Shown piece by piece: positions 1 through 9,305 of a DNA stretch of 64,000 nucleotides. Every line of letters starts with the position of its first letter. The first letter of the stretch is position 1. Source of the stretch: Fimbriimonadales bacterium (GTDB taxonomy: Bacteria; Armatimonadota; Fimbriimonadia; Fimbriimonadales; ATM1); contig JBGTLG010000022.1 in assembly GCA_041744215.1 (NCBI GenBank), positions 1 to 64,000 on the forward strand, in the 5' to 3' direction. A model generated the notes under the pieces. It worked only from the letters and a program-made list of their open reading frames with translations, did no database searches and was not told the DNA's origin. Made by a program: the position numbers and the translations under genes.

Positions 1-1
1 G

Positions 2-620
2 ATGGACAGGCCCTGGGCACGATTTGTTTGCGGTGATGCCTTGACGGAACTGAGGAAGCTGCCAGCAGAATCGGTGGACTGCGTCGTCACATCGCCCCCT
101 TACTGGTTCGTCCGTGACTACGGCGTTGCCGGGCAGATAGGCTTGGAGACGACGGTCGAGACCTACATCGAGATGCTCGCTCGAGTGTTCGCTGAGGTCC
201 GGAGGGTGCTGAAGGCCACGGGGACCCTTTGGCTGGTCATCGGGGATTGCCACGTGACGGGCTCGAAACTCTTCAATCTGCGCACTTTCACCAAGCTCAG
301 ACACGGTAGGCAGTTTACGACTGAGGGCCAGTCGAAGCTCCGCAATCCACTTTCGAGCGGCCTAGCGCACAAGAACCTACGATGGAAGGATTCTTCGCTT
401 AGACATCATCTGGCACAAGCCCAACCCGAATCCCGAGCAGATAAAGGACGGTCCCCCGAAGGCGGGTGATCACTAGGCCTCGTTTCCCGAAGTTCTGGTC
501 GAACCGTGAATCAAAGCTGGCTGCACAAATGAGGGCAGACGAGTGCTTGATTTCTTTGTTGGCAGCGGCACGAAGATGATAGTGGCTACGAGAATACTTG
601 GACTTGCGTAGAATTGATGC
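2..620 (+). pseudogene. Decayed beta-class N4/N6 DNA methyltransferase
   Basis: Motif IV VVTSPPY in the frame-2 ORF. Family motifs continue in frame 3 (ILRLDIIWHKPNP, ASFPEVLVEP, VLDFFVGSGT) after a frameshift near 380, with stops at 474, 507 and 609. Confidence 0.8.
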
Positions 621-961
621 CGCCGCCAGCCGAATGTCACGAGCACTGGAATGAACGCCGACTGACGAATGGGCAATGAGGATGGAGGAGTGAGTGACAG
701 GGTTTGTGGAATGAGGGTTGAGTTATTGTTTGAGCCTTACTTTGCTCGGCGATTTCGACCAATCCTGACCGCCCCACAAACCGCGGTAATGTCCGCAATT
801 CTCCTTCCTAGGCTTGGAGCAGTTTGTCAGGGGAAGCAGTGCGATCGAGCTCAATGTACTCTTTCTGGTTCAGAAACTCGCAGGCTCCACGAGAGGAACT
901 GCGCCCCGATATTGCCCCTTTTGAACATCGGCCCACCGCTAGGCGAACGGCGTTGCCAGTT

Positions 962-3900
962 TCAGTTGGCGGCACCAGCCCAACCGCTCCTTAGCTGTGC
1001 AATTACGTGCGAGAACTCCTTGTCGGTCGCGTCGTATCCCTCAGAGATGATCGTTCGGCAGATATCTCGAAGTTCCTTCTCCGTCGCGCATTTGCGAAGA
1101 GCTTGAGCTAAAACCTCCTTACTTACCCTGAGACCAGCCTTTCGCATAAGGTCAATTGCACGGGTCGCTTCCTCAACGTTGCTAGACTTGCTCGCCAGAA
1201 GGTCGAAAGTCGCTGGAGACGGAACGAACTCGCGACCGGTCTCAGGCGCCAGAACAAGGCACGCTTGGTCAAAGGTTTCCGCTCTGGCGGCAAGTCCGCA
1301 ATACGAAGTTTCGGAAATCTCAATGTCTTTTGAACGTTCGACGCTCATGAGTTCAAGTGCTGCCTCAAAGCTCGGTGCTTTGCTAAACAATGGGGTAAAA
1401 ACTGATTCGTTCAGTTCAACGCTCGAACCAAGTGACTCGAGAAAGCCCAGACCTTCATCCCAAGTCTCCGCCAACGAAACGAGCGCGGAAACAACAACTG
1501 CGGGCAGATAAGCGTATGATTCCTTCCAAGGGAACTCTCCAAGCCCACGTAGCCATGCAAGACCCATTGAAAGAGATTCGGCCTTCGAAACAAGACATGA
1601 AATGGTATTCTCGTTTATTCTCACATTGGCTGCACACAGGTCCTTCACCATGCCAAAAGCAGCTTCGGCGGTGGGAGCCATCCTAATCACGTTTTGCAAT
1701 GTGCGCTGGTCGAGCTGACCTGGTGCCTGCTGCAACACTAGCTCGCAAGCAGCCTCAAAGGACTCTGCCTTAGTAACTAATGCCGCGATGACCATTGGGG
1801 AGCTACACAGGTCTGCAGCGACTGGCATCTTCTCCTTGAAGTTGGCTAGGAACTGCTTCGCTTCAGCGATCGAACCCGCTTTCGAAACAAGGGAAGATAG
1901 CACGGTTGCATTCCAGCCAAGGCCCTCTTCAAGCAATTGCGACGTTCTGGCTTCTGCATCCTTGAAAGATGGCGACTTAGCAACATAGTGCGTTACGATC
2001 TGAGTGCTCGGCACAAAACCAAAGCGTTTCATGAGTCTTAGTCCTTGTTCTATTTGGTCTGCTGTTGTCGCCCTTGACAATAGGTAGGTGAATGTCATTC
2101 CAACGGGTTCCAGACCCAACTTCTCAATCCATGAGAGAATATCCATCCCTTCTTGAAAGGTCCCCTTGGCAATCAATTCGTTGAAAGTTGCAACGTAAAC
2201 AGGCGACCCAGCAGTCATTTCGTCTTCGATGATTTGACGCGCAAGAGTGAAGCTCGGTGCCTTTTGAATGAGAATCCGGAGAGTCACGTTACTGGGTGCT
2301 AAGCCTGACACTTTCATCCGCTTTAGCACATCTAGAGCGTCGTAAATCGATTGCATCTTCGACATTAGCGAATTAAACGTGACGACGGTTGGCGAAAGAC
2401 GCCCTGCCTCTAGGCCCTCAAAAAACTCCATCGCTTGGTCCGAAGGAACTCTGGACAGGAGCGTGTTAAATGTGACGATATCCGGTTCCCAGCCCTCAGA
2501 TTCTAGGCGTTCTGTCAGTTCCAGTGCCTGGGAGAAGGTCTTGGTCTTAGCCAGCAGGCTGTTCAGCGTATAGCTTGTGGGTGTAACTTGCTTCGCGCGT
2601 AAGCGGGCCACGACGGCATTCGCCTGTTCAAGATCGGCTGCCTGGTCGATAAGAACGTTGTAGATTCGGGCGTCGAGCTGCTGGCATTCTCGTTCGATTC
2701 GATCAAGCAAGCTCATGCCAAAGTGGAAGTCACTGGCAGCGCGAAGAAGGTTATGATAGGCAAAAGTAGGAGCCTCGATTCCGGCAGGCGGTTCACGAAG
2801 GCCAAGGTTCTCAGCGAGGTGAGGATGGTCCGTGAAGCATCGCAGATGAAACCCCAGTGCTGAATCCGGTGCTAGCAGCCAGGCGGCGTGGAGTAGGTCC
2901 CGCGTATCCGCCGCAATCTGGACTGGAAGTGGAGCACGGTTTGGGTCAAGTCGAAGCTGACCCGAGAGACGCTGCAAGACAAAATACTCTCCAAGGAAGT
3001 CCGGCTGTATGGCGGTGATCCGGGGGCTGTTCGGGTCCCACTCTTCGCCTAGGGCGGCTAGTGCCTCCATAGTTTGATCGTTCCAAGTCGGAGGTAACTT
3101 GCCATTGACCACCAGGAGTTTGAGCGCATCCGATTCCAAGTCTTGAAAACGGACGCTGCCAGTGATCGTCGCGAAGGCCAAGAGATTGATGTCCTCGTGG
3201 CGCGCGCCGACGGACTGCCAGCGACTTGCTTCTTTGCGCAGAACGGTGCTCGTAAGGTCGATATGAGACCACCTCGGTACCTGTAGCGCATCCGGATTTG
3301 TCCTGTGCGCATCCGCGAACATAGCGGCAAAAAGCGGCCTCCCTTGCCGGTCGATGCTCTGCAGGAAAACCCGAGCGAGCCTGTTCCTTACCTCGTCGAC
3401 AATACTCGGCAATTTCAGTTGAAGGATCTGCCCCACTGACTCGAAATCAAGTGTTCGTAGCTTCAGTGGCTGAGGGTCGTAGAGCGAATTCAAGACGATC
3501 TGATCGGTGTTTGATTCGCCGGCCGTCAATAGCTGCCACCAAAGGTCTGAGGACTTTCTCTCTAGCAGCAACACTCGTAGCTGATGCTGAGAGTTTGCAC
3601 GGTTGTTTGCCCTCGCAAGCATCGCCAACATTTCCTGAATGGAAGCGAACCTCTCGACAACGTAGTCGACAATCATCAGCGTATCGCCACTTGGGTTCCA
3701 GTACAGCCAGTCGTCAAATCGGTCATCGATCGCCCAGAACCCACCTTTCCAACCACGCTCCAAAGACGACAACATCAGTTCAAGCGCGAGCCTGCTCTTG
3801 CCACTGCCTGCCTCACCCGTGATTGCCCACCATGTGAACCCCGCGTCAGAATCGATGAAACGTTGAAGGTGATCAAATGCTTCAGAGCGACCAATCAGCG

Positions 3901-4516
3901 GAACGGCGCGCTCGCCGTAGTAAAACCTTCGCGCTTCCTTGCGAACTGCATCCGTCGTCACTCTTGGCAGTTCGAGCAATGGGCCCCGCTCGTGCCGATG
4001 TTGGCCGCCCCGGGCTTTCGAAAAGCGTCGATCAATCTCCAGCCCAATGTCACGAGCCCGGTTTGCGATCTCAGAAAGCCGGCCCTCAAACCACTCTGGC
4101 TTGGATTGACAAAGTTGAGGATCGATTCCTCCGGATGAAATTTCGAGCGCCCACTCCAGTTGGCTTTGAGCAGCAGTCGTACGATTTGACCAGATTTGCT
4201 CGAAATCCACAAGATCGCACGTCCAGCTTCCTCGAAGGTAGACGCCGCTCCCGGCTCTAAAGCGGATTTCAACGCCTGTCTTGTCCCGAAAGCCGTACCG
4301 GCCCCTTTTGGATTCGGGCAAGTTAGCTCGGTCAACTATATCCCGTATCTGATGCTCGTCGGGCACACTCGGAATGTTCTTTCTTTCCAGATACTTCTTT
4401 CCTGACAGCAACAGTAGTTTCAAATAGGTCAAATACCTGCGGTCGGGAAGCTCAAGCTGACGACCTTCCTTGCTTGCCCGAAACGTACCAAACAGGTGGA
4501 ATCTGACTGGATCCAT
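962..4516 (-). CDS. SARP-like wHTH/BTAD + STAND P-loop NTPase + PPR-like repeat protein (1184 aa)
   Basis: N-terminus VRFHLFGTFRA...TCDLVDFEQ; Walker A GEAGSGKS; Walker B LMIVDY; GRPLF motif; C-terminal repeats such as WEPDIVTFNTLLS and LSPTVVTFNSLMS. Confidence 0.8.
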   Translation of the reverse strand: MDPVRFHLFGTFRASKEGRQLELPDRRYLTYLKLLLLSGKKYLERKNIPSVPDEHQIRDIVDRANLPESKRGRYGFRDKTGVEIRFRAGSGVYLRGSWTCDLVDFEQIWSNRTTAAQSQLEWALEISSGGIDPQLCQSKPEWFEGRLSEIANRARDIGLEIDRRFSKARGGQHRHERGPLLELPRVTTDAVRKEARRFYYGERAVPLIGRSEAFDHLQRFIDSDAGFTWWAITGEAGSGKSRLALELMLSSLERGWKGGFWAIDDRFDDWLYWNPSGDTLMIVDYVVERFASIQEMLAMLARANNRANSQHQLRVLLLERKSSDLWWQLLTAGESNTDQIVLNSLYDPQPLKLRTLDFESVGQILQLKLPSIVDEVRNRLARVFLQSIDRQGRPLFAAMFADAHRTNPDALQVPRWSHIDLTSTVLRKEASRWQSVGARHEDINLLAFATITGSVRFQDLESDALKLLVVNGKLPPTWNDQTMEALAALGEEWDPNSPRITAIQPDFLGEYFVLQRLSGQLRLDPNRAPLPVQIAADTRDLLHAAWLLAPDSALGFHLRCFTDHPHLAENLGLREPPAGIEAPTFAYHNLLRAASDFHFGMSLLDRIERECQQLDARIYNVLIDQAADLEQANAVVARLRAKQVTPTSYTLNSLLAKTKTFSQALELTERLESEGWEPDIVTFNTLLSRVPSDQAMEFFEGLEAGRLSPTVVTFNSLMSKMQSIYDALDVLKRMKVSGLAPSNVTLRILIQKAPSFTLARQIIEDEMTAGSPVYVATFNELIAKGTFQEGMDILSWIEKLGLEPVGMTFTYLLSRATTADQIEQGLRLMKRFGFVPSTQIVTHYVAKSPSFKDAEARTSQLLEEGLGWNATVLSSLVSKAGSIAEAKQFLANFKEKMPVAADLCSSPMVIAALVTKAESFEAACELVLQQAPGQLDQRTLQNVIRMAPTAEAAFGMVKDLCAANVRINENTISCLVSKAESLSMGLAWLRGLGEFPWKESYAYLPAVVVSALVSLAETWDEGLGFLESLGSSVELNESVFTPLFSKAPSFEAALELMSVERSKDIEISETSYCGLAARAETFDQACLVLAPETGREFVPSPATFDLLASKSSNVEEATRAIDLMRKAGLRVSKEVLAQALRKCATEKELRDICRTIISEGYDATDKEFSHVIAQLRSGWAGAAN
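965..2770 (-). repeat. Array of about 18 degenerate 30-37 aa (mostly 32 aa) PPR-like protein repeats
   Basis: Manual alignment to consensus xxTFNxLLxKAxSFxxAxxLLxxMxxxGLxP. Confidence 0.75.
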
Positions 4517-4895
4517 CAGCGACAGTGAAGCCCCAGTAGCATTGTACAGAATCGGCGAGAGGTTCAGTACCGGTGGCTGTGTCAGTGGTTCGGGAGATTC
4601 GCGATTAGTTCGTTACCAATTCGTGAAGGAGCAACAGTATACACATGTTAGCAGCGCTCGTGACAGGGCAGTAGGTTGATAGTAAGGCCTGCTTTGCCCG
4701 GAACGAGATATGGAGCCGCAATGTGACGCGGCTCCCGAAGATGGCCGACCCTCGGCTACAGGGCTCATTGACCAGCCCCGTGACCGCTAGGAGGTCGGTC
4801 AGAGGGCCAGCCTTGCACAACATAGCAAGAATCCGCGCCAACCGCAACTGGTTCGTACCTTCTCTCACGAGCGCGCGAACAACTAGGAGGAATAA

Positions 4896-5003
4896 ATGAA
4901 GTCTGTCAGGATGCGCCAGATGCTGGCGCTTGTACTTGCCGCGATCGGGGCGTTGGGCACTGTATTGCCTGCGTGCTGTGACGACCGGCAGCGTAGCTTG
5001 TGA
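4896..5003 (+). CDS. Small hydrophobic peptide (35 aa), possible lipoprotein or membrane anchor
   Basis: AGGAGG 5 nt before ATG; MKSVRMRQMLALVLAAIGALGTVLPACCDDRQRSL; TGATG overlap with the next gene. Confidence 0.55.
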   Translation: MKSVRMRQMLALVLAAIGALGTVLPACCDDRQRSL

Positions 5004-6376
5004 TGTCGCGCCCAGCCATCCCGGAACATTGGATTGGAGTCGTCAAGGACTGGTCGGACTTGTGCCAGTCGTTTGATGAGGCGCTCGTCACATTGCCGCC
5101 TGTCATGCTTAGCACCCACGCGCTCGTCATCGGCGCGACTGGCAGTGGCAAGACCAACTTCCTGCATCACCTTATCGCGGGCGACTTGATGCGCGGTCAT
5201 TCGATCATCGTGCTCGACGCGCGAGGCGACCTTGCCCTTGCTACCGTTGAACTGGCATCTAGGACTGGCGTTGATCCCATACGTGTGAAGTTCCTAGACC
5301 TCCGCGAGAAGGACCAGCCGCTGGGCTTCAACCCACTCGCGGGCAAAGGGGAGTCTTACTATCGAGCGCTCGGCCTTATCGACGCTGTCGCGGCTGAGTC
5401 CGAGTCGTGGGGTGTCCAGCTCGCCGAGACGTTCCGGAACGCCGCGCTCCTGCTCGCCGAAACTAGTAGCCCCATCACTAAACTCGACGGGCTCTTTTAC
5501 AAAGGTGCTGTTCGTCGAGAGTTGATCGCACGGGCGTCTTCTGAGTCCCTTCGCGCCTTCTGGAGCCGGTACGACTCGCTTTCAGCGGACAAGCAGGCCG
5601 TCCTCGCATCACCAGTGCTCAACAAGGTGAGTGCGCTGCTGGCAACGGAGGGACTTCGACGGATGTACGGCCACCCGGCACCAGTCGATCTTGCCGAGCA
5701 ACTGAACTCGCGCGGCAGCGTGACCCTTGTCTCCCTCGCCGTAGACGAGATGCACTCGGCGGGATGGATGACGGGATCGATCATGGTCAGCTCGATCTGC
5801 CGAGAAGTCTTCTCACAAGCAACTGTCCCGGAAAGTCAGCGGAACCCGATCCGGCTCTATGTCGACGAGTTTGAGAACTTCGCCATGCGAGACTTCGAGA
5901 CGATTCTCGCCGAGGGTCGCAGGTTCAGATTCTCCGTCGTCTTGGCGCATCAAACCTTGGCCCAATTGACCTCGAAATTGCGTTCGGTCATCCTGGGAAA
6001 CGTTGGCGTAAAGGTCGTCTTCCGGACCGGTTACCAGGACGCAGAGGTCTTGAATCGCGACCTGGCCGGAGCTAAAGGCGCGTTCGACCTTGCGTCTCTG
6101 CCCGTAGGCGAGGCCGTGCTGTGGCGGCGCGGCGCATACCCGTTCCAGATCGAAGTCAATGCGCCCCTCATCGAAGATGTGGGAAGCATCAGTCCATCCG
6201 CTCGCGAGTTCCTTGAGCAACTCTCGGGACTGACTCCAGCCTACTACGAAATCGTCGAGGATCCCGCAAGAGTCGAGCGGGAGAGCGAAGTCGAAACGGC
6301 CGAACCGCCTCCTCCGCTGAGACAATCCAGAGGACGCAAGTCGCCGGGCGGGAAGTTGGAGGACTGGCTCGGATGA
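5003..6376 (+). CDS. VirD4/TraD/HerA-like type IV coupling ATPase
   Basis: HALVIGATGSGKT, LYVDEF, EGRRFRFSVVLAHQTLAQL and ILGNVG motifs. Confidence 0.8.
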   Translation: MSRPAIPEHWIGVVKDWSDLCQSFDEALVTLPPVMLSTHALVIGATGSGKTNFLHHLIAGDLMRGHSIIVLDARGDLALATVELASRTGVDPIRVKFLDLREKDQPLGFNPLAGKGESYYRALGLIDAVAAESESWGVQLAETFRNAALLLAETSSPITKLDGLFYKGAVRRELIARASSESLRAFWSRYDSLSADKQAVLASPVLNKVSALLATEGLRRMYGHPAPVDLAEQLNSRGSVTLVSLAVDEMHSAGWMTGSIMVSSICREVFSQATVPESQRNPIRLYVDEFENFAMRDFETILAEGRRFRFSVVLAHQTLAQLTSKLRSVILGNVGVKVVFRTGYQDAEVLNRDLAGAKGAFDLASLPVGEAVLWRRGAYPFQIEVNAPLIEDVGSISPSAREFLEQLSGLTPAYYEIVEDPARVERESEVETAEPPPPLRQSRGRKSPGGKLEDWLG

Positions 6377-7029
6377 TCACACTGCTGGACTATCGCACTA
6401 AGTCCGACGCCGTCCTGGCCCCAATCCGCGAGTACCGGCCTAGCACTGCTCTCTCACGGCGCCTCGCGATGGAAGGAATCCAGTCTTTCTCCCTTTTCCA
6501 ACTTCCTCCGGGATTGGCGGGCGCGGAACGATTCAGGTCCGTGGTGGAAGTGGCCCGCGCCTCCCACGGCGCGTTGGGTGCGTGCCTTCACGTTTACACA
6601 GCGGCGGAGTATGCGCACATGCGACTCTTCACCGACCCTGACGGTATGGCGGGTTTTGCTCTCAATGGTCAAGACGTCGTGTCCGTGTTCTGCCACAAAG
6701 CCCGCCGCAAGCGGCATGCCACACGAACAATGATGCAGTTGGCTGCTACCTTGGGCGGCATCTTCTTGAACGCATTCGACACGTTCCTTCCTCGCCTCTA
6801 TGGACGATGCGGGTTCAAGTCAGTCGCTCGATTAGCTTGGGACGACCGTGAGGCTCCGATCGGCTGGGATTACGGAGCGGCCCAGCAGTTCAATAACGGC
6901 AGGCCAGATGTGGTCTTCATGACACAAACGAACCGCAAACAGACAGTTCGCTATGTCACTTCGTTTGAAGCCGGAGAGCTCCTACAGAAGCTGGCTTTCG
7001 GCACCGGCTTCGTCGAGGTGAACCTATGA
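6373..7029 (+). CDS. Hypothetical protein, GNAT-like fold suspected
   Basis: VVSVF...LNAFDTFLPRLYGRCGFKSVAR resembles a GNAT C-terminal motif; overlaps both neighbours by 4 nt. Confidence 0.5.
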   Translation: MITLLDYRTKSDAVLAPIREYRPSTALSRRLAMEGIQSFSLFQLPPGLAGAERFRSVVEVARASHGALGACLHVYTAAEYAHMRLFTDPDGMAGFALNGQDVVSVFCHKARRKRHATRTMMQLAATLGGIFLNAFDTFLPRLYGRCGFKSVARLAWDDREAPIGWDYGAAQQFNNGRPDVVFMTQTNRKQTVRYVTSFEAGELLQKLAFGTGFVEVNL

Positions 7030-7703
7030 GGATTACGAAGCGCGATATTACTGTCCTGCGCGACCTGGCGCTGAGCCACATCCTTTCCCGGGACCAACTG
7101 TTGCAACTCGGCTACTTCCACTCGATCACTCGGGTGAATACTCGCATGCGCGAGCTGACTAAGCTGGGCCTCGTTCGCCGCCTAGACAGCCCATTCTTCG
7201 GTCAGAGCCTATACATCGCATCCAAACGGGCTGCTGAGGTGGTCGGAGAGAAGATCTCGACACTGATCGAGGGGCGGACCTCTTCGCCCCGATTCGTTCA
7301 GCATGCGATGTCCGTCACAAACGTCCGGATCGCCCTCCAGCGGAAGTCGAGCGGAGTCTGGCGGTTCGAGCAGCAGCTTTGGCGAAAGATCCGGAGTCCT
7401 AAGCGGCTCGAGGTCCGCCCTGACGGACTTTTGATGGCAAGCCTCCCCATTTTCATCGAAGTTGATATGGGGCACGCCTCGGCGCCCCGCTTCAAGGAGA
7501 AGCTCAGCTCATATCAAGCGTTGGCCAAGTCCGGCCAGTGCCAGTTGATGTACGGCTTCAACAAGTTTCGTGTTTTGGCCGTCACAACCGGGTCCCTCCG
7601 CTCTCGTCACCTACGTCGCTTGCAGCCTTCTGACGCTGGGTTTGAATTCCTAATTCAGACCTTCGATGAGGTTGGCGCGACCCCAATCGCACCATGGAGT
7701 TAA
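7026..7703 (+). CDS. Replication-relaxation (PF13814-like) family relaxase
   Basis: N-terminal wHTH (ITKRD...LSRDQL), QHAMSVT, VRPDG, IFIEVDMG and KLSSY motifs. Confidence 0.8.
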   Translation: MRITKRDITVLRDLALSHILSRDQLLQLGYFHSITRVNTRMRELTKLGLVRRLDSPFFGQSLYIASKRAAEVVGEKISTLIEGRTSSPRFVQHAMSVTNVRIALQRKSSGVWRFEQQLWRKIRSPKRLEVRPDGLLMASLPIFIEVDMGHASAPRFKEKLSSYQALAKSGQCQLMYGFNKFRVLAVTTGSLRSRHLRRLQPSDAGFEFLIQTFDEVGATPIAPWS

Positions 7704-7709
7704 CTCACT

Positions 7710-8078
7710 ATGCTCGCCCAAAGAACTGACCAACAACCCATCATTTCCGTCCCTAACTCCCTCCGGCAACAGCTTGAGAGGGCTCAGAACCTCCTTAGCC
7801 AGAGCGAAGAAGCTGAATCGTATGGTGATCGATCTCTGGCGGTCGTGAAGGCCAAAGAAGCCATGCAGGTTATCCAGAGAGTTGCTCAGCAGTCTCCTGA
7901 GATAGCGGCGCTGATCATCCTTGGAGACATGGGCTACCGGGGCTTTGAGGTCGAGACGGTCGAGCGTGTGGACCGCCATCAGATCGTTCAACACACGTTT
8001 CTTGGGGTCACCATGGGCCAAGAAGTCGTCAACGTCCCGACCATCACCCGACGTACGATCCGCGCAAGGTTGTTATGA
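7710..8078 (+). CDS. Hypothetical protein
   Basis: ORF within the operon, coupled to the downstream gene. Confidence 0.6.
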   Translation: MLAQRTDQQPIISVPNSLRQQLERAQNLLSQSEEAESYGDRSLAVVKAKEAMQVIQRVAQQSPEIAALIILGDMGYRGFEVETVERVDRHQIVQHTFLGVTMGQEVVNVPTITRRTIRARLL

Positions 8079-8284
8079 GCCATAAGCTTGCCTACACGGT
8101 CGCCGAGGCCGCTGAACTCCTGTCGATCTCGCGCTCTCTTCTCTACGAACTGATCCATGCGGGTCGAATCGAGTCCGTGAAGTTCGGACGTTCTCGCCGA
8201 ATAACGCAGGAGCAAATGCACCGGTTCCTTCAGGACCACGCTGTCGAATCGCTCCGAGCTCCACCCTATGATCGCCGGAAATAA
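8075..8284 (+). CDS. Excisionase-family HTH DNA-binding protein
   Basis: AYTVAEAAELLSISRSLLYELIHAGRIESVKFGRSRRI. Confidence 0.85.
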   Translation: MSHKLAYTVAEAAELLSISRSLLYELIHAGRIESVKFGRSRRITQEQMHRFLQDHAVESLRAPPYDRRK

Positions 8285-8300
8285 ACTGCAGATAAACTGC
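8281..8300. repeat. Tandem ATAAACTGC direct repeat, candidate integrase arm-type sites
   Basis: Copies at 8281-8289 and 8292-8300, about 60 bp inside the tRNA 3' end. Confidence 0.5.
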
Positions 8301-8302
8301 GC

Positions 8303-8346
8303 AAAGAAAAACGCCCTCCGCTCGAGAGGGCGTTCTCTTCGTTTTT
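8303..8346. terminator. Intrinsic terminator, probably bidirectional
   Basis: Stem AACGCCCTC/GAGGGCGTT (8310-8334) flanked by A-rich and T-rich runs. Confidence 0.7.
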
Positions 8347-8358
8347 GAACCTAATTGG

Positions 8359-8433
8359 TGGCTGCCGCACTTGGATTCGAACCAAGGACCCGCTGATTAA
8401 CAGTCAGCTGCTCTACCGCTGAGCTATGCGGCA
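8359..8433 (-). tRNA. tRNA-Asn(GTT)
   Basis: Cloverleaf, anticodon loop CTGTTAA, encoded CCA. Confidence 0.97.
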
Positions 8434-8502
8434 ACGGGGATACGAAAGAATACCCTACAGATAGTCGGAAACCGAGCCCCGGAAGCACAGGGAGGGTACA
8501 CT

Positions 8503-8560
8503 CCTTCCCCCAAGAATCCTCTCTGTCCCCGCCGGATGGGGACCAGAGGCCATAGGGAGG
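8503..8560 (+). promoter_or_regulatory. Putative S6:S18 ribosomal protein leader RNA
   Basis: CCTTCCC can pair with the SD GGGAGG; inner hairpin CTCTGTCCCC...GGGGACCAGAG; CCA in the 3' internal loop; TACACT -10 box just upstream. Confidence 0.55.
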
Positions 8561-8564
8561 AAAA

Positions 8565-8861
8565 ATGAGCAATCTGAGAAACTACGAAGCACTTTACATC
8601 TTGCCGGCCAACCTCGACGATGCGACGGTGACGGCCCATGTGGAGAAGAACAAGAAGCTGATCGAAGACCACGGAGGACAGGTCGAACTTGCCGAAAAGT
8701 GGGATAAGCGAAAACTCGCGTATCCGATCAAAGGGCACTCCGAAGGCAACTATTGCATCTTGCACTTCACCGCACCGGCGACTGTTCCGGCCGAACTCAG
8801 CCGTCAGTTCCGCATCAGCGACGAAGTCATCCGAGGCAGGGTGTTTTTGCGGGAGGCATAG
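8565..8861 (+). CDS. rpsF: 30S ribosomal protein S6
   Basis: RNYEALYIL, KRKLAYPIK. Confidence 0.97.
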   Translation: MSNLRNYEALYILPANLDDATVTAHVEKNKKLIEDHGGQVELAEKWDKRKLAYPIKGHSEGNYCILHFTAPATVPAELSRQFRISDEVIRGRVFLREA

Positions 8862-8864
8862 GAC

Positions 8865-9305
8865 ATGGCAGCAATCAATCGAGTTGTTATCACAGGCCGC
8901 CTTACGAACGATCCCGAACTGCGAACCACGCCTAGTGGCAAGCAGGTGGTCGGTGTCAGCGTAGCGGTACAGAAACGCTTCAAACCTACGGATCCAAACG
9001 AGAAGGACGCGCACTTCTTCCGTGTAACTTGCTGGGGTCGAGACGCCGAATTCCTGGCCAACTACGCCCACAAGGGCAGAATGGTTGGAATCGAAGGCCG
9101 ACTTGAGCAGCGCCGATACACCGGAAACGACGGGATCGAGCGCGAAGTAGTCGAGATCATCGCAGACAATGTCGCTCTTCTCGATCGACCTCGCGACGAC
9201 GCCGGCGGAGGCGAGAACCGCGAGCGTGCCGTCGCCGCTGTCCCTGCGGGCGGCGCCAGTTCCAACGACGAGCCGGACGACTACGACCCATTCGCAGAGG
9301 AGTAA
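8865..9305 (+). CDS. ssb: Single-stranded DNA-binding protein
   Basis: INRVVITGRLTNDPELRTT; acidic DDYDPF tail. Confidence 0.97.
   Translation: MAAINRVVITGRLTNDPELRTTPSGKQVVGVSVAVQKRFKPTDPNEKDAHFFRVTCWGRDAEFLANYAHKGRMVGIEGRLEQRRYTGNDGIEREVVEIIADNVALLDRPRDDAGGGENRERAVAAVPAGGASSNDEPDDYDPFAEE

Follow-up and report, generated by a model that had tools for sequence, protein, structure and literature searches.

The question raised by the locus described here is what a long array of pentatricopeptide (PPR)-like repeats does in a bacterium, given that PPR proteins are regarded as essentially eukaryotic, organelle-directed RNA binders. The locus lies near the start of a 64,000-nucleotide stretch of DNA, referred to below as the window (contig JBGTLG010000022.1, positions 1 to 64,000, assembly GCA_041744215.1). 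Its host is a hot-spring bacterium of the Fimbriimonadales (Armatimonadota), with an assembly of 2.68 Mb that is 93% complete. The array is the C-terminal arm of a single open reading frame (ORF) of 1184 amino acids (aa). A preliminary description of this DNA had read the array by itself, at 965-2770, which is the 3' half of that ORF; the repeats it reported are real, but the SARP-STAND protein ahead of the tail was missed. The domain order is a SARP-type head, a STAND NTPase and a short-PPR array (Table 1). A SARP-type head followed by a STAND NTPase and a helical-repeat tail is the layout of the AfsR-type "large SARPs", and we favor, with moderate confidence, the view that the protein is a signal-gated transcription activator of a mobile element, the PPR-type tail acting as its sensor or lid. 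The gene combines known kinds of parts, STAND regulators and PPR repeats; no description of the combination of SARP, STAND and short PPRs was found in full-text literature searches.

The repeats are PPR homologues with a 32-residue period

Autocorrelation of residues 601-1184, scored with BLOSUM62, gave a single sharp maximum at lag 32 (-0.13, the values elsewhere being about -0.6 to -1.0), with echoes at lags 31, 63 and 64 and without signal at lag 35 (-0.78). Segmentation yielded 18 units and a 19-aa tail. Thirteen of the units are 32 aa long and the others 31, 31, 37, 30 and 36 aa, so that by the 35-residue unit of the PPR family the array falls outside it. The repeats are nevertheless recognized by several PPR profiles: Pfam PPR_2 (64.3 bits, cut-off 30) and PPR_3 (54.6 bits, cut-off 25) and the NCBIfam model TIGR00756 (25.2 bits, cut-off 20) score above their cut-offs, and PPR_1 is just under its own (22.5 bits, cut-off 23.8). 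A hidden Markov model (HMM) of the repeat, proposed in the preliminary description, was built with 32 positions from the repeats of 33 other proteins only, with P0021, a protein of 33-aa period, left out. It recovered 15 ungapped units here, at 4.5-25 bits; these counts are of ungapped matches, and repeats with insertions (here units 7, 12 and 18) are left out of them.

Searches of sequence and structure databases point the same way. With phmmer, the sequences in the PDB matched best were designer PPRs (2e-48 to 1e-31) and maize PPR10 (2e-25), and a word-indexed protein search with the tail region returned mostly eukaryotic PPRs. An AlphaFold2 (AF2) model of residues 576-1184 (pLDDT 86.9) has 39 helices, paired, of about 10 and about 13 residues. 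Foldseek placed PPR10 (4m57) first among PDB structures (E 1.1e-12), with designer PPR-RNA complexes and PPR proteins of mitoribosomes next, and the top 50 matches for the array were PPR proteins almost throughout. Period, segmentation, profile scores, phmmer and the structural model thus agree with the earlier identification of 32-aa PPR repeats.

The preliminary description had also stated that the unit is three residues shorter than the canonical 35. Residue alignment to designer PPRs bears this out and places the three-residue deletion at the end of helix a, at its junction with the loop and directly before a conserved Lys. This makes positions 5, 10 and 32 of the repeat equivalent to PPR positions 5, 13 and 35, and the fifth and last residues, taken earlier to be the positions of the plant PPR code, are indeed homologous to them. 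Our re-reading of these residue pairs agrees with the list given before; the pairs of repeats 11-12 hinge on a register choice of one residue. The internal identity of the array is the third-lowest of 35 arrays (mean pairwise 0.20), the only orthologue lying lower being P0003.

The head and the NTPase

Residues 1-172 are predicted to form an OmpR-type winged helix followed by short BTAD-like helices (AF2 pLDDT 85.9). In VIA-align the model matched two chains of AfsR, 8k60_J (SARP domain; Z 12.3, root-mean-square deviation (rmsd) 3.9 Å over 157 aligned residues) and 8hvr_I (Z 11.4, rmsd 3.8 Å, 157 aligned), and two structures of EmbR, 2ff4_B (Z 11.5, rmsd 3.2 Å, 159 aligned) and 2fez (Z 10.8, rmsd 3.0 Å, 155 aligned), with the next unrelated chain at Z 6.5. 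AfsR was also the first Foldseek match (E 6e-4). As modelled, the head is an AfsR/EmbR-type SARP DNA-binding fold. Sequence comparison gave less: a profile of three heads found nothing below E 0.5 among PDB sequences, and a word-indexed search with the head alone returned only the query itself, which is weak evidence given the limits of that tool. The Atlas feature neighbors of the head, at 0.86-0.88, contain Trans_reg_C or BTAD in 10-51% of their members, and we treat them as leads only.

The middle part has a Walker A motif, GEAGSGKS, at residues 233-240 (nucleotides 3797-3820). This motif, the hhhhD of Walker B and one Arg are invariant in an alignment of four sequences. Pfam scores remain below cut-off (AAA_16 27.2 bits, cut-off 32.6; nSTAND_NTPase5 17.3 bits, cut-off 34; nSTAND3 18.1 bits, cut-off 27.2), and the relative P0033 reaches 35.1 bits with nSTAND_NTPase5, over the cut-off. 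Many of the 150 phmmer matches listed cover only residues ~175-585, and the 18 such NTPase-only relatives that were scanned, P0033 among them, are STAND proteins with TPR or PPR tails and with DUF4062 or Cap4-nuclease heads. On this evidence the NTPase probably belongs to an nSTAND5-like clade.

Near-full-length relatives are few. Among the phmmer matches listed from 1.84 billion representatives, only P0002 (50% identity) and P0003 (43%) are of this kind, and P0004 (32%) is a relative with another head. The nearest named relatives that carry the gene family are Armatimonadetes and Fimbriimonadaceae metagenome-assembled genomes (MAGs). The full-length protein occurs in none of 40 other genomes of the same order, and a profile of the head only found the domain in one of 300 other genomes sampled from the phylum, the genome G168. 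The gene is accessory, with a patchy distribution.

Association with a transfer module

The SARP-STAND gene is divergent from a transfer module on the opposite strand, which encodes a coupling-protein-like ATPase and a relaxase-like Replic_Relax protein (Table 1). The same divergent neighbors, a coupling protein and Replic_Relax, occur at the P0002 locus (L006) in an Armatimonadetes MAG. In G168 the head is fused into a 660-aa protein with C-terminal hydrophobic segments, and its gene lies between Replic_Relax/coupling protein and ArdC, with an integrase adjoining. In G011, an unpublished genome (publication of statements based on it needs the permission of its depositors), two ORFs, at loci L002 and L005, consist of the head, a linker, one hydrophobic segment and a weak NPCBM-like domain, and each adjoins a coupling-protein gene. 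The same head is thus found in the same place with three unrelated C-terminal parts, which suggests that it is the element's own regulator with exchangeable sensors.

Separately, we note that the G168 locus (L011, G168:C1:875000-893000) represents a related integrative element whose genes are arranged as tyrosine integrase, Replic_Relax, coupling protein, head gene, ArdC, serine recombinase and Mrr-type nuclease.

Sites bound by SARPs are heptamers at 11-bp spacing. Between the gene and the transfer module there are three direct heptamers of this kind (Table 1), 82-110 bp upstream of the ATG, with a fourth TTCG at 4589. A separate TTCG/GTCG triplet, spaced by 10-11 bp, stands in the L006 intergenic region, and the two triplets fall in aligned columns. 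Phased triplets of equal quality occur at six places in the 64-kb window, and the L006 triplet is one of two such places in 16.2 kb. In L006, 13 repeat pairs were counted against 2.0 expected, above all 200 shuffles (largest 11). Exact-seed direct repeats are absent from 4500-5010, where phased repeats appear only with one or two mismatches. The triplet is suggestive as a candidate SARP operator.

How the protein might work can be proposed by analogy with AfsR, MalT and other STAND regulators. At rest, in an ADP-bound state, the solenoid would keep the NTPase closed. A ligand, bound in or on the solenoid, would permit nucleotide exchange and oligomerization, and the oligomer would position several SARP domains along the TTCG repeats and switch transcription on. 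By the same analogy, the activated target would be the rightward transfer operon, the gene itself or both. A PPR-type arm as the sensor of a bacterial STAND protein has a precedent in PaAvs5-3, as far as the portion of that report available to us goes (PMC12931631).

Table 1. Coordinates in the window of the SARP-STAND gene, its parts and its neighbors
Feature	Position	Strand	Basis or remark
Whole gene, 1184 aa	962..4516	-	ORF list and translation; stop codon 962-964
SARP-type DNA-binding domain (as modelled), aa 1-172	4001..4516	-	AF2 model, VIA-align, Foldseek
STAND-type P-loop NTPase with helical/winged-helix extension, aa 175-583	2768..3994	-	Pfam matches below cut-off, relatives
About 18 PPR-like repeats and C-terminal capping helix, aa 584-1184	965..2767	-	Period, homology, AF2 model
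Candidate operator, three direct heptamers with TTCG core (4598, 4609, 4620), exact 11-bp spacing	4598..4626	.	Intergenic
Transfer module (coupling protein/relaxase)	5000..7703	+	
Coupling-protein-like ATPase	5000-6376	+	Pfam TrwB_AAD_bind, TraG-D_C, T4SS-DNA_transf
Unknown ORF	6373-7029	+	Between ATPase and Replic_Relax genes
Replic_Relax protein	7026-7703	+	Pfam Replic_Relax
tRNA-Asn (GTT)	8359-8433	-	Right edge of the mobile genes
DNA methyltransferase ORF, 155 aa	2-469	+	Matches positions 1-60 of the 221-position N6_N4_Mtase profile

Code residues in the array

Under the plant code, as given in the available part of a published account, Asn at the fifth position denotes a pyrimidine and Ser or Thr a purine, while a last residue Asp denotes U or G and Asn denotes C or A (PMC12733224). 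The preliminary description had called several of the residue pairs canonical and proposed that repeats 2-5, if the code holds, read a run of pyrimidines, and that the array could be a new programmable RNA-binding scaffold. Canonical pairs are present (ND in unit 3, TN in unit 9, SN in unit 14), but only in these three of the 18 repeats are both residues in the N/S/T x D/N alphabet, or in four if NS in unit 5 is also counted. The fifth residue is N, T or S in 11 of 18 repeats; the others are H, R, A, Q, C and D, and Y, V, P and Q occur among the last residues. By its DSSP boundaries, helix a of the AF2 model begins at repeat position 1, which makes position 32 its N-cap, a place that favors S, T, D or N by itself.

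In the aligned orthologues the code positions show no preferential conservation. Against P0002 and P0003 together, over units 1-10, identity is 11/20 at position 5 and 5/20 at the last position, compared with 256/646 overall; with P0003 alone, taken over 18 units, the values are 7/18, 3/17 and 195/572. At the code sites of units 7-18 the orthologues have residues such as I, Q, A, L, G, M, P and E. Conservation among four homologues is good in repeats 1-6, and P0002 is without the last eight repeats. The only part that looks like a site of PPR-style nucleic-acid contact is an Asn-rich patch in repeats 2-5.

A scan for the target that the code would predict had also been proposed, and was made over the window, intergenic region included, with a 15-letter IUPAC pattern derived from the published rule and at most one mismatch. 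The pattern occurs at chance level (59 matches against 56.4 +/- 6.2, with 41 of 100 shuffles reaching 59) and has no match in 4517-5000; we rejected the scan as uninformative. With code pairs in so few repeats, unconserved sites and a scan at chance, the reading of a pyrimidine run by repeats 2-5 is not upheld, and the array looks too degenerate for a programmable scaffold. Its degeneracy and its variability between orthologues make a protein or some other non-coded ligand likelier than a coded RNA.

Short PPR arrays in other bacteria

The 32-aa form itself, described earlier as a short variant of the PPR, is not peculiar to this protein. Among the best 150 phmmer matches, 34 align to the repeat region only, with equal lengths in query and target. 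We determined the best lag in 27 proteins, namely 23 of the repeat-only matches and P0001-P0004, and found it to be 32 in 24 of them; P0002 and P0004 have 31 and then 32, and P0021 has 33. Judged by these sequences, 32 aa is the usual unit of bacterial PPR arrays linked to TIR, SIR2, CHAT or STAND domains. The heads found in the repeat relatives are TIR_2, SIR2_2 (in the Avs5 layout), CHAT, DUF4062, SMEK_N and STAND NTPases, and the three carriers identified by name are a Bacteroidales MAG, Portibacter marinus and a Kapabacteria MAG.

In these relatives the code alphabet is kept far more often than in our array. Among 362 unique ungapped repeats of at least 10 bits from the 33 proteins, position 5 is N in 50%, T in 18% and S in 17% (N/T/S 85%), position 32 is D in 43% and N in 40% (D/N 83%), and position 10 is K in 72% and R in 10%. 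The pairs ND, NN, TN, SN, TD or SD make up 266 of the 362. In P0016 (89% internal identity) and P0104 (81%), positions 32 and 5 vary most, toggling N/S and D/N. Averaged over 17 uniform arrays, entropy is 1.15 at position 32, the highest value, 1.10 at position 2 and 1.06 at positions 1 and 5. Of the six most uniform arrays, three do not have both 5 and 32 in the group of their six most variable positions; P0085 has neither there. The code signal in the family is, on these residue counts, real but mixed.

As a further observation, P0016, P0104, P0009, P0027 and others, with CHAT, SIR2 or other heads, have 8-17 near-identical 32-aa units. These units differ mainly at positions 5 (N/S/T) and 32 (D/N), which under the plant code would make each array the spelling of a nucleotide string.

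Full-text literature searches found nothing on a bacterial 32-aa PPR class or on a code within it; their sole find was one sentence on PPR repeats, in PaAvs5-3. The authors of the Avs5 paper, in the portion available to us, note PPR-type repeats in that protein and report its activation by expression of the phage gene for JADA (PMC12931631). The words "bacteria" and "prokaryot" are absent from the available portion of a structural review of PPRs (PMC13041630).

Other features of the mobile element

The tRNA-Asn at the right edge of the mobile genes is likely the integration site. Att-type repeats were not found within 1-8600, and the element's other end lies beyond the start of the contig. Contigs of three DNA sequencing runs break inside the tRNA (8373-8416), where many unrelated contigs pile up. 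Contigs of the three runs also break at ~112-141, and no joints were seen in any of them. In run X1 the contig that covers bases 1-141 has a depth of 36, about double that of the neighboring one (18.1). The methyltransferase ORF at the left end is probably truncated or frameshifted.

The only direct repeat found in 1-8600 is a 19-nt pair with one mismatch, at 626-644 (downstream of the gene) and 4039-4057 (in its 5' part), which is possibly due to chance. Directly ahead of the coupling-protein gene, at 4896-5003 on the forward strand, a 35-codon ORF read by eye follows an AGGAGG, and its stop overlaps the GTG start of the coupling protein. Its product is lipoprotein-like, with a Cys after a signal-peptide-like hydrophobic stretch.

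The intergenic region also contains a non-coding block, 4705-4835, that is conserved with two loci of the unpublished genome. Folded as RNA, it reaches -57.5 kcal/mol (z -4.09), and none of 200 shuffles does as well. It could be a set of oriT-type hairpins or the leader RNA of the transfer operon. Rfam gave no match for it, the tRNA-Asn being the only match in 1-9000 at E<=0.1, and a scan of 700-5100 for promoters and terminators found nothing above shuffles.

Weighing the explanations

Several observations weigh against a signal-gated SARP-STAND activator, and some of them lend support to other explanations. The head model was built from a five-row alignment of which two rows come from the unpublished G011, as does part of the synteny evidence. 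Pfam Trans_reg_C and BTAD gave no match at E<=1 with either the whole protein or residues 1-175, and the BTAD part of the head comprises only three helices. Pairs of 7-mer repeats in the window are not above shuffles (4 against 4.2), so that the case for an operator comes from the phased triplet and the corresponding one in a single orthologue, and the G011 loci are without the same repeats. The nearest NTPase relatives have heads of defense type, and the nearest repeat relatives have TIR, SIR2 and CHAT heads in a clade that is mostly immune. Within the array, Asn5 of units 2-5 and the Asp that ends unit 3 are invariant in four homologues, and Lys or Arg stands at position 10, homologous to PPR Lys13, in 14 of 18 units; the array may therefore contact nucleic acid.

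The immune relatives would be explained if the protein were an Avs-like anti-phage or anti-plasmid STAND sensor carried by the element as cargo, its PPR arm recognizing an invader protein and its SARP-like head providing the output, by DNA binding or by inducing a toxic or escape program, instead of housekeeping regulation of transfer. The DUF4062 and Cap4-nuclease heads of the NTPase relatives and the TIR_2, SIR2_2, CHAT, DUF4062 and SMEK_N heads of the repeat relatives fit this idea, as do the patchy distribution of the gene, its location on a mobile island next to a fragment of a DNA methyltransferase gene, ArdC and the Mrr-type nuclease near the head gene in G168, and the PaAvs5-3 precedent. 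We consider it unlikely all the same: PADLOC gave only a weak match of mad8 (20.7 bits) over the P-loop, residues 228-296, and PDC-S70 at E 0.041; the head is no enzyme but a DNA-binding fold; and its occurrence beside a coupling-protein gene with three unrelated C-terminal parts fits a core regulator better than cargo. If, on the other hand, the array has no specific ligand, it may be an intramolecular lid or oligomerization scaffold inherited from an immune ancestor and now decaying. The low internal identity, the weak per-repeat HMM scores and the missing repeats of P0002 would suit such decay, but the frame of 600 aa is intact, the model is confident throughout and the first six repeats are well conserved, and we hold this explanation to be very unlikely.

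The retained Asn and Lys/Arg residues bear most directly on the possibility that the array is a sequence-specific reader of single-stranded RNA, or single-stranded DNA (ssDNA), by the fifth/last-residue code, and couples recognition of a transcript or transferred strand to the STAND switch. The homology to PPRs is genuine, with the code positions in homologous places; code-alphabet pairs predominate in the related proteins, and in the most uniform arrays, P0016 and P0104, the code positions are the most variable. Designer PPRs also read ssDNA by the same rules, according to the available portion of the structural review (PMC13041630). We nevertheless think this quite improbable for the present protein, in view of the few code pairs, the non-code residues of the orthologues in repeats 7-18, the identity at the last position below the overall value, the N-capping that explains S/T/D/N there, and the chance-level scan. 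Even among the most uniform relatives half do not have both code positions among the most variable, and the only characterized PPR-armed STAND protein is activated, in what is available of its description, by expression of a gene for a phage protein (PMC12931631). A wider version is likewise improbable, namely that the 32-aa PPR arms of bacteria are natural readers of a nucleic-acid code, coupled to switches, each array spelling its target RNA or ssDNA, and that here the Asn patch of repeats 2-5 reads a short pyrimidine-rich strand and so gates SARP-driven transcription of the transfer genes. That strand would be, for example, the element's own transcript or the transferred strand from the structured block upstream of the transfer module.

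Comparison with known systems

The locus combines a SARP head with a bacterial STAND switch whose presumed sensor arm is built of compact 32-aa PPR-type units, on a conjugative or mobilizable element, and under the activator reading that we favor it illustrates how the transfer genes of a mobile element could be placed under the control of a STAND sensor. The code-like alphabet of the more regular bacterial relatives, which lie outside the window, is the more interesting lead. That the plant alphabet is kept in the wider family raises the question of whether bacterial immune sensors read nucleic acid by a PPR code. In that case designer RNA binders could be built on the shorter unit as a new scaffold, for which the regular relatives (P0016 and P0104, for example) would be the candidates and not the degenerate array described here.

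The closest likeness in overall plan is to AfsR of Streptomyces and the other "large SARPs" of its type (8k60, 8hvr; the head also resembles EmbR, 2fez and 2ff4). Both have the winged helix and BTAD fold, the order of DNA-binding head, STAND NTPase and helical-repeat tail, and phased direct repeats near the promoter. The AfsR tail, however, is made of TPRs, whereas that of the present protein is of PPR type; its NTPase is nSTAND5-like and not NB-ARC, no Pfam match to Trans_reg_C, BTAD or NB-ARC is obtained, and the BTAD part is reduced to three helices. The setting also differs, a mobile element of the Armatimonadota here and antibiotic clusters in actinomycetes there. MalT is a ligand-gated, ATP-dependent oligomerizing activator with a helical-repeat sensor, and it and the classical STAND transcription factors are functional analogues. 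Unlike the present protein, MalT has a C-terminal LuxR-type DNA-binding domain and a sensor that is not PPR-like, and we saw no match to it in sequence or structure.

Plant and organellar PPR proteins (PPR10, 4m57 and 4m59; designer dPPR, 5i9d-5i9h, and cPPR, 5orm and 5orq) share with the array the family, the two-helix solenoid and homologous positions 2, 5, Lys and last. Their S motifs are also short, at 31 aa in the available part of a published account (PMC12733224). The present array differs from them in being a uniform 32-aa tandem and not P-L-S triplets, in its bacterial origin, in its fusion with a DNA-binding domain and a STAND NTPase, and in its scarcity of code pairs. The bacterial short-PPR conflict proteins, including PaAvs5-3, a SIR2-STAND protein of the Avs5 kind (by its authors' PPR annotation, in the portion available; PMC12931631), have the same 32-aa period and the same C-terminal arm behind a STAND or other NTPase, and they swap their heads freely. 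Their arrays are far more regular than ours and keep the N/S/T x D/N alphabet, and they carry enzyme heads that bring about death or arrest of the cell, whereas the head of the Fimbriimonadales protein is a DNA-binding domain.

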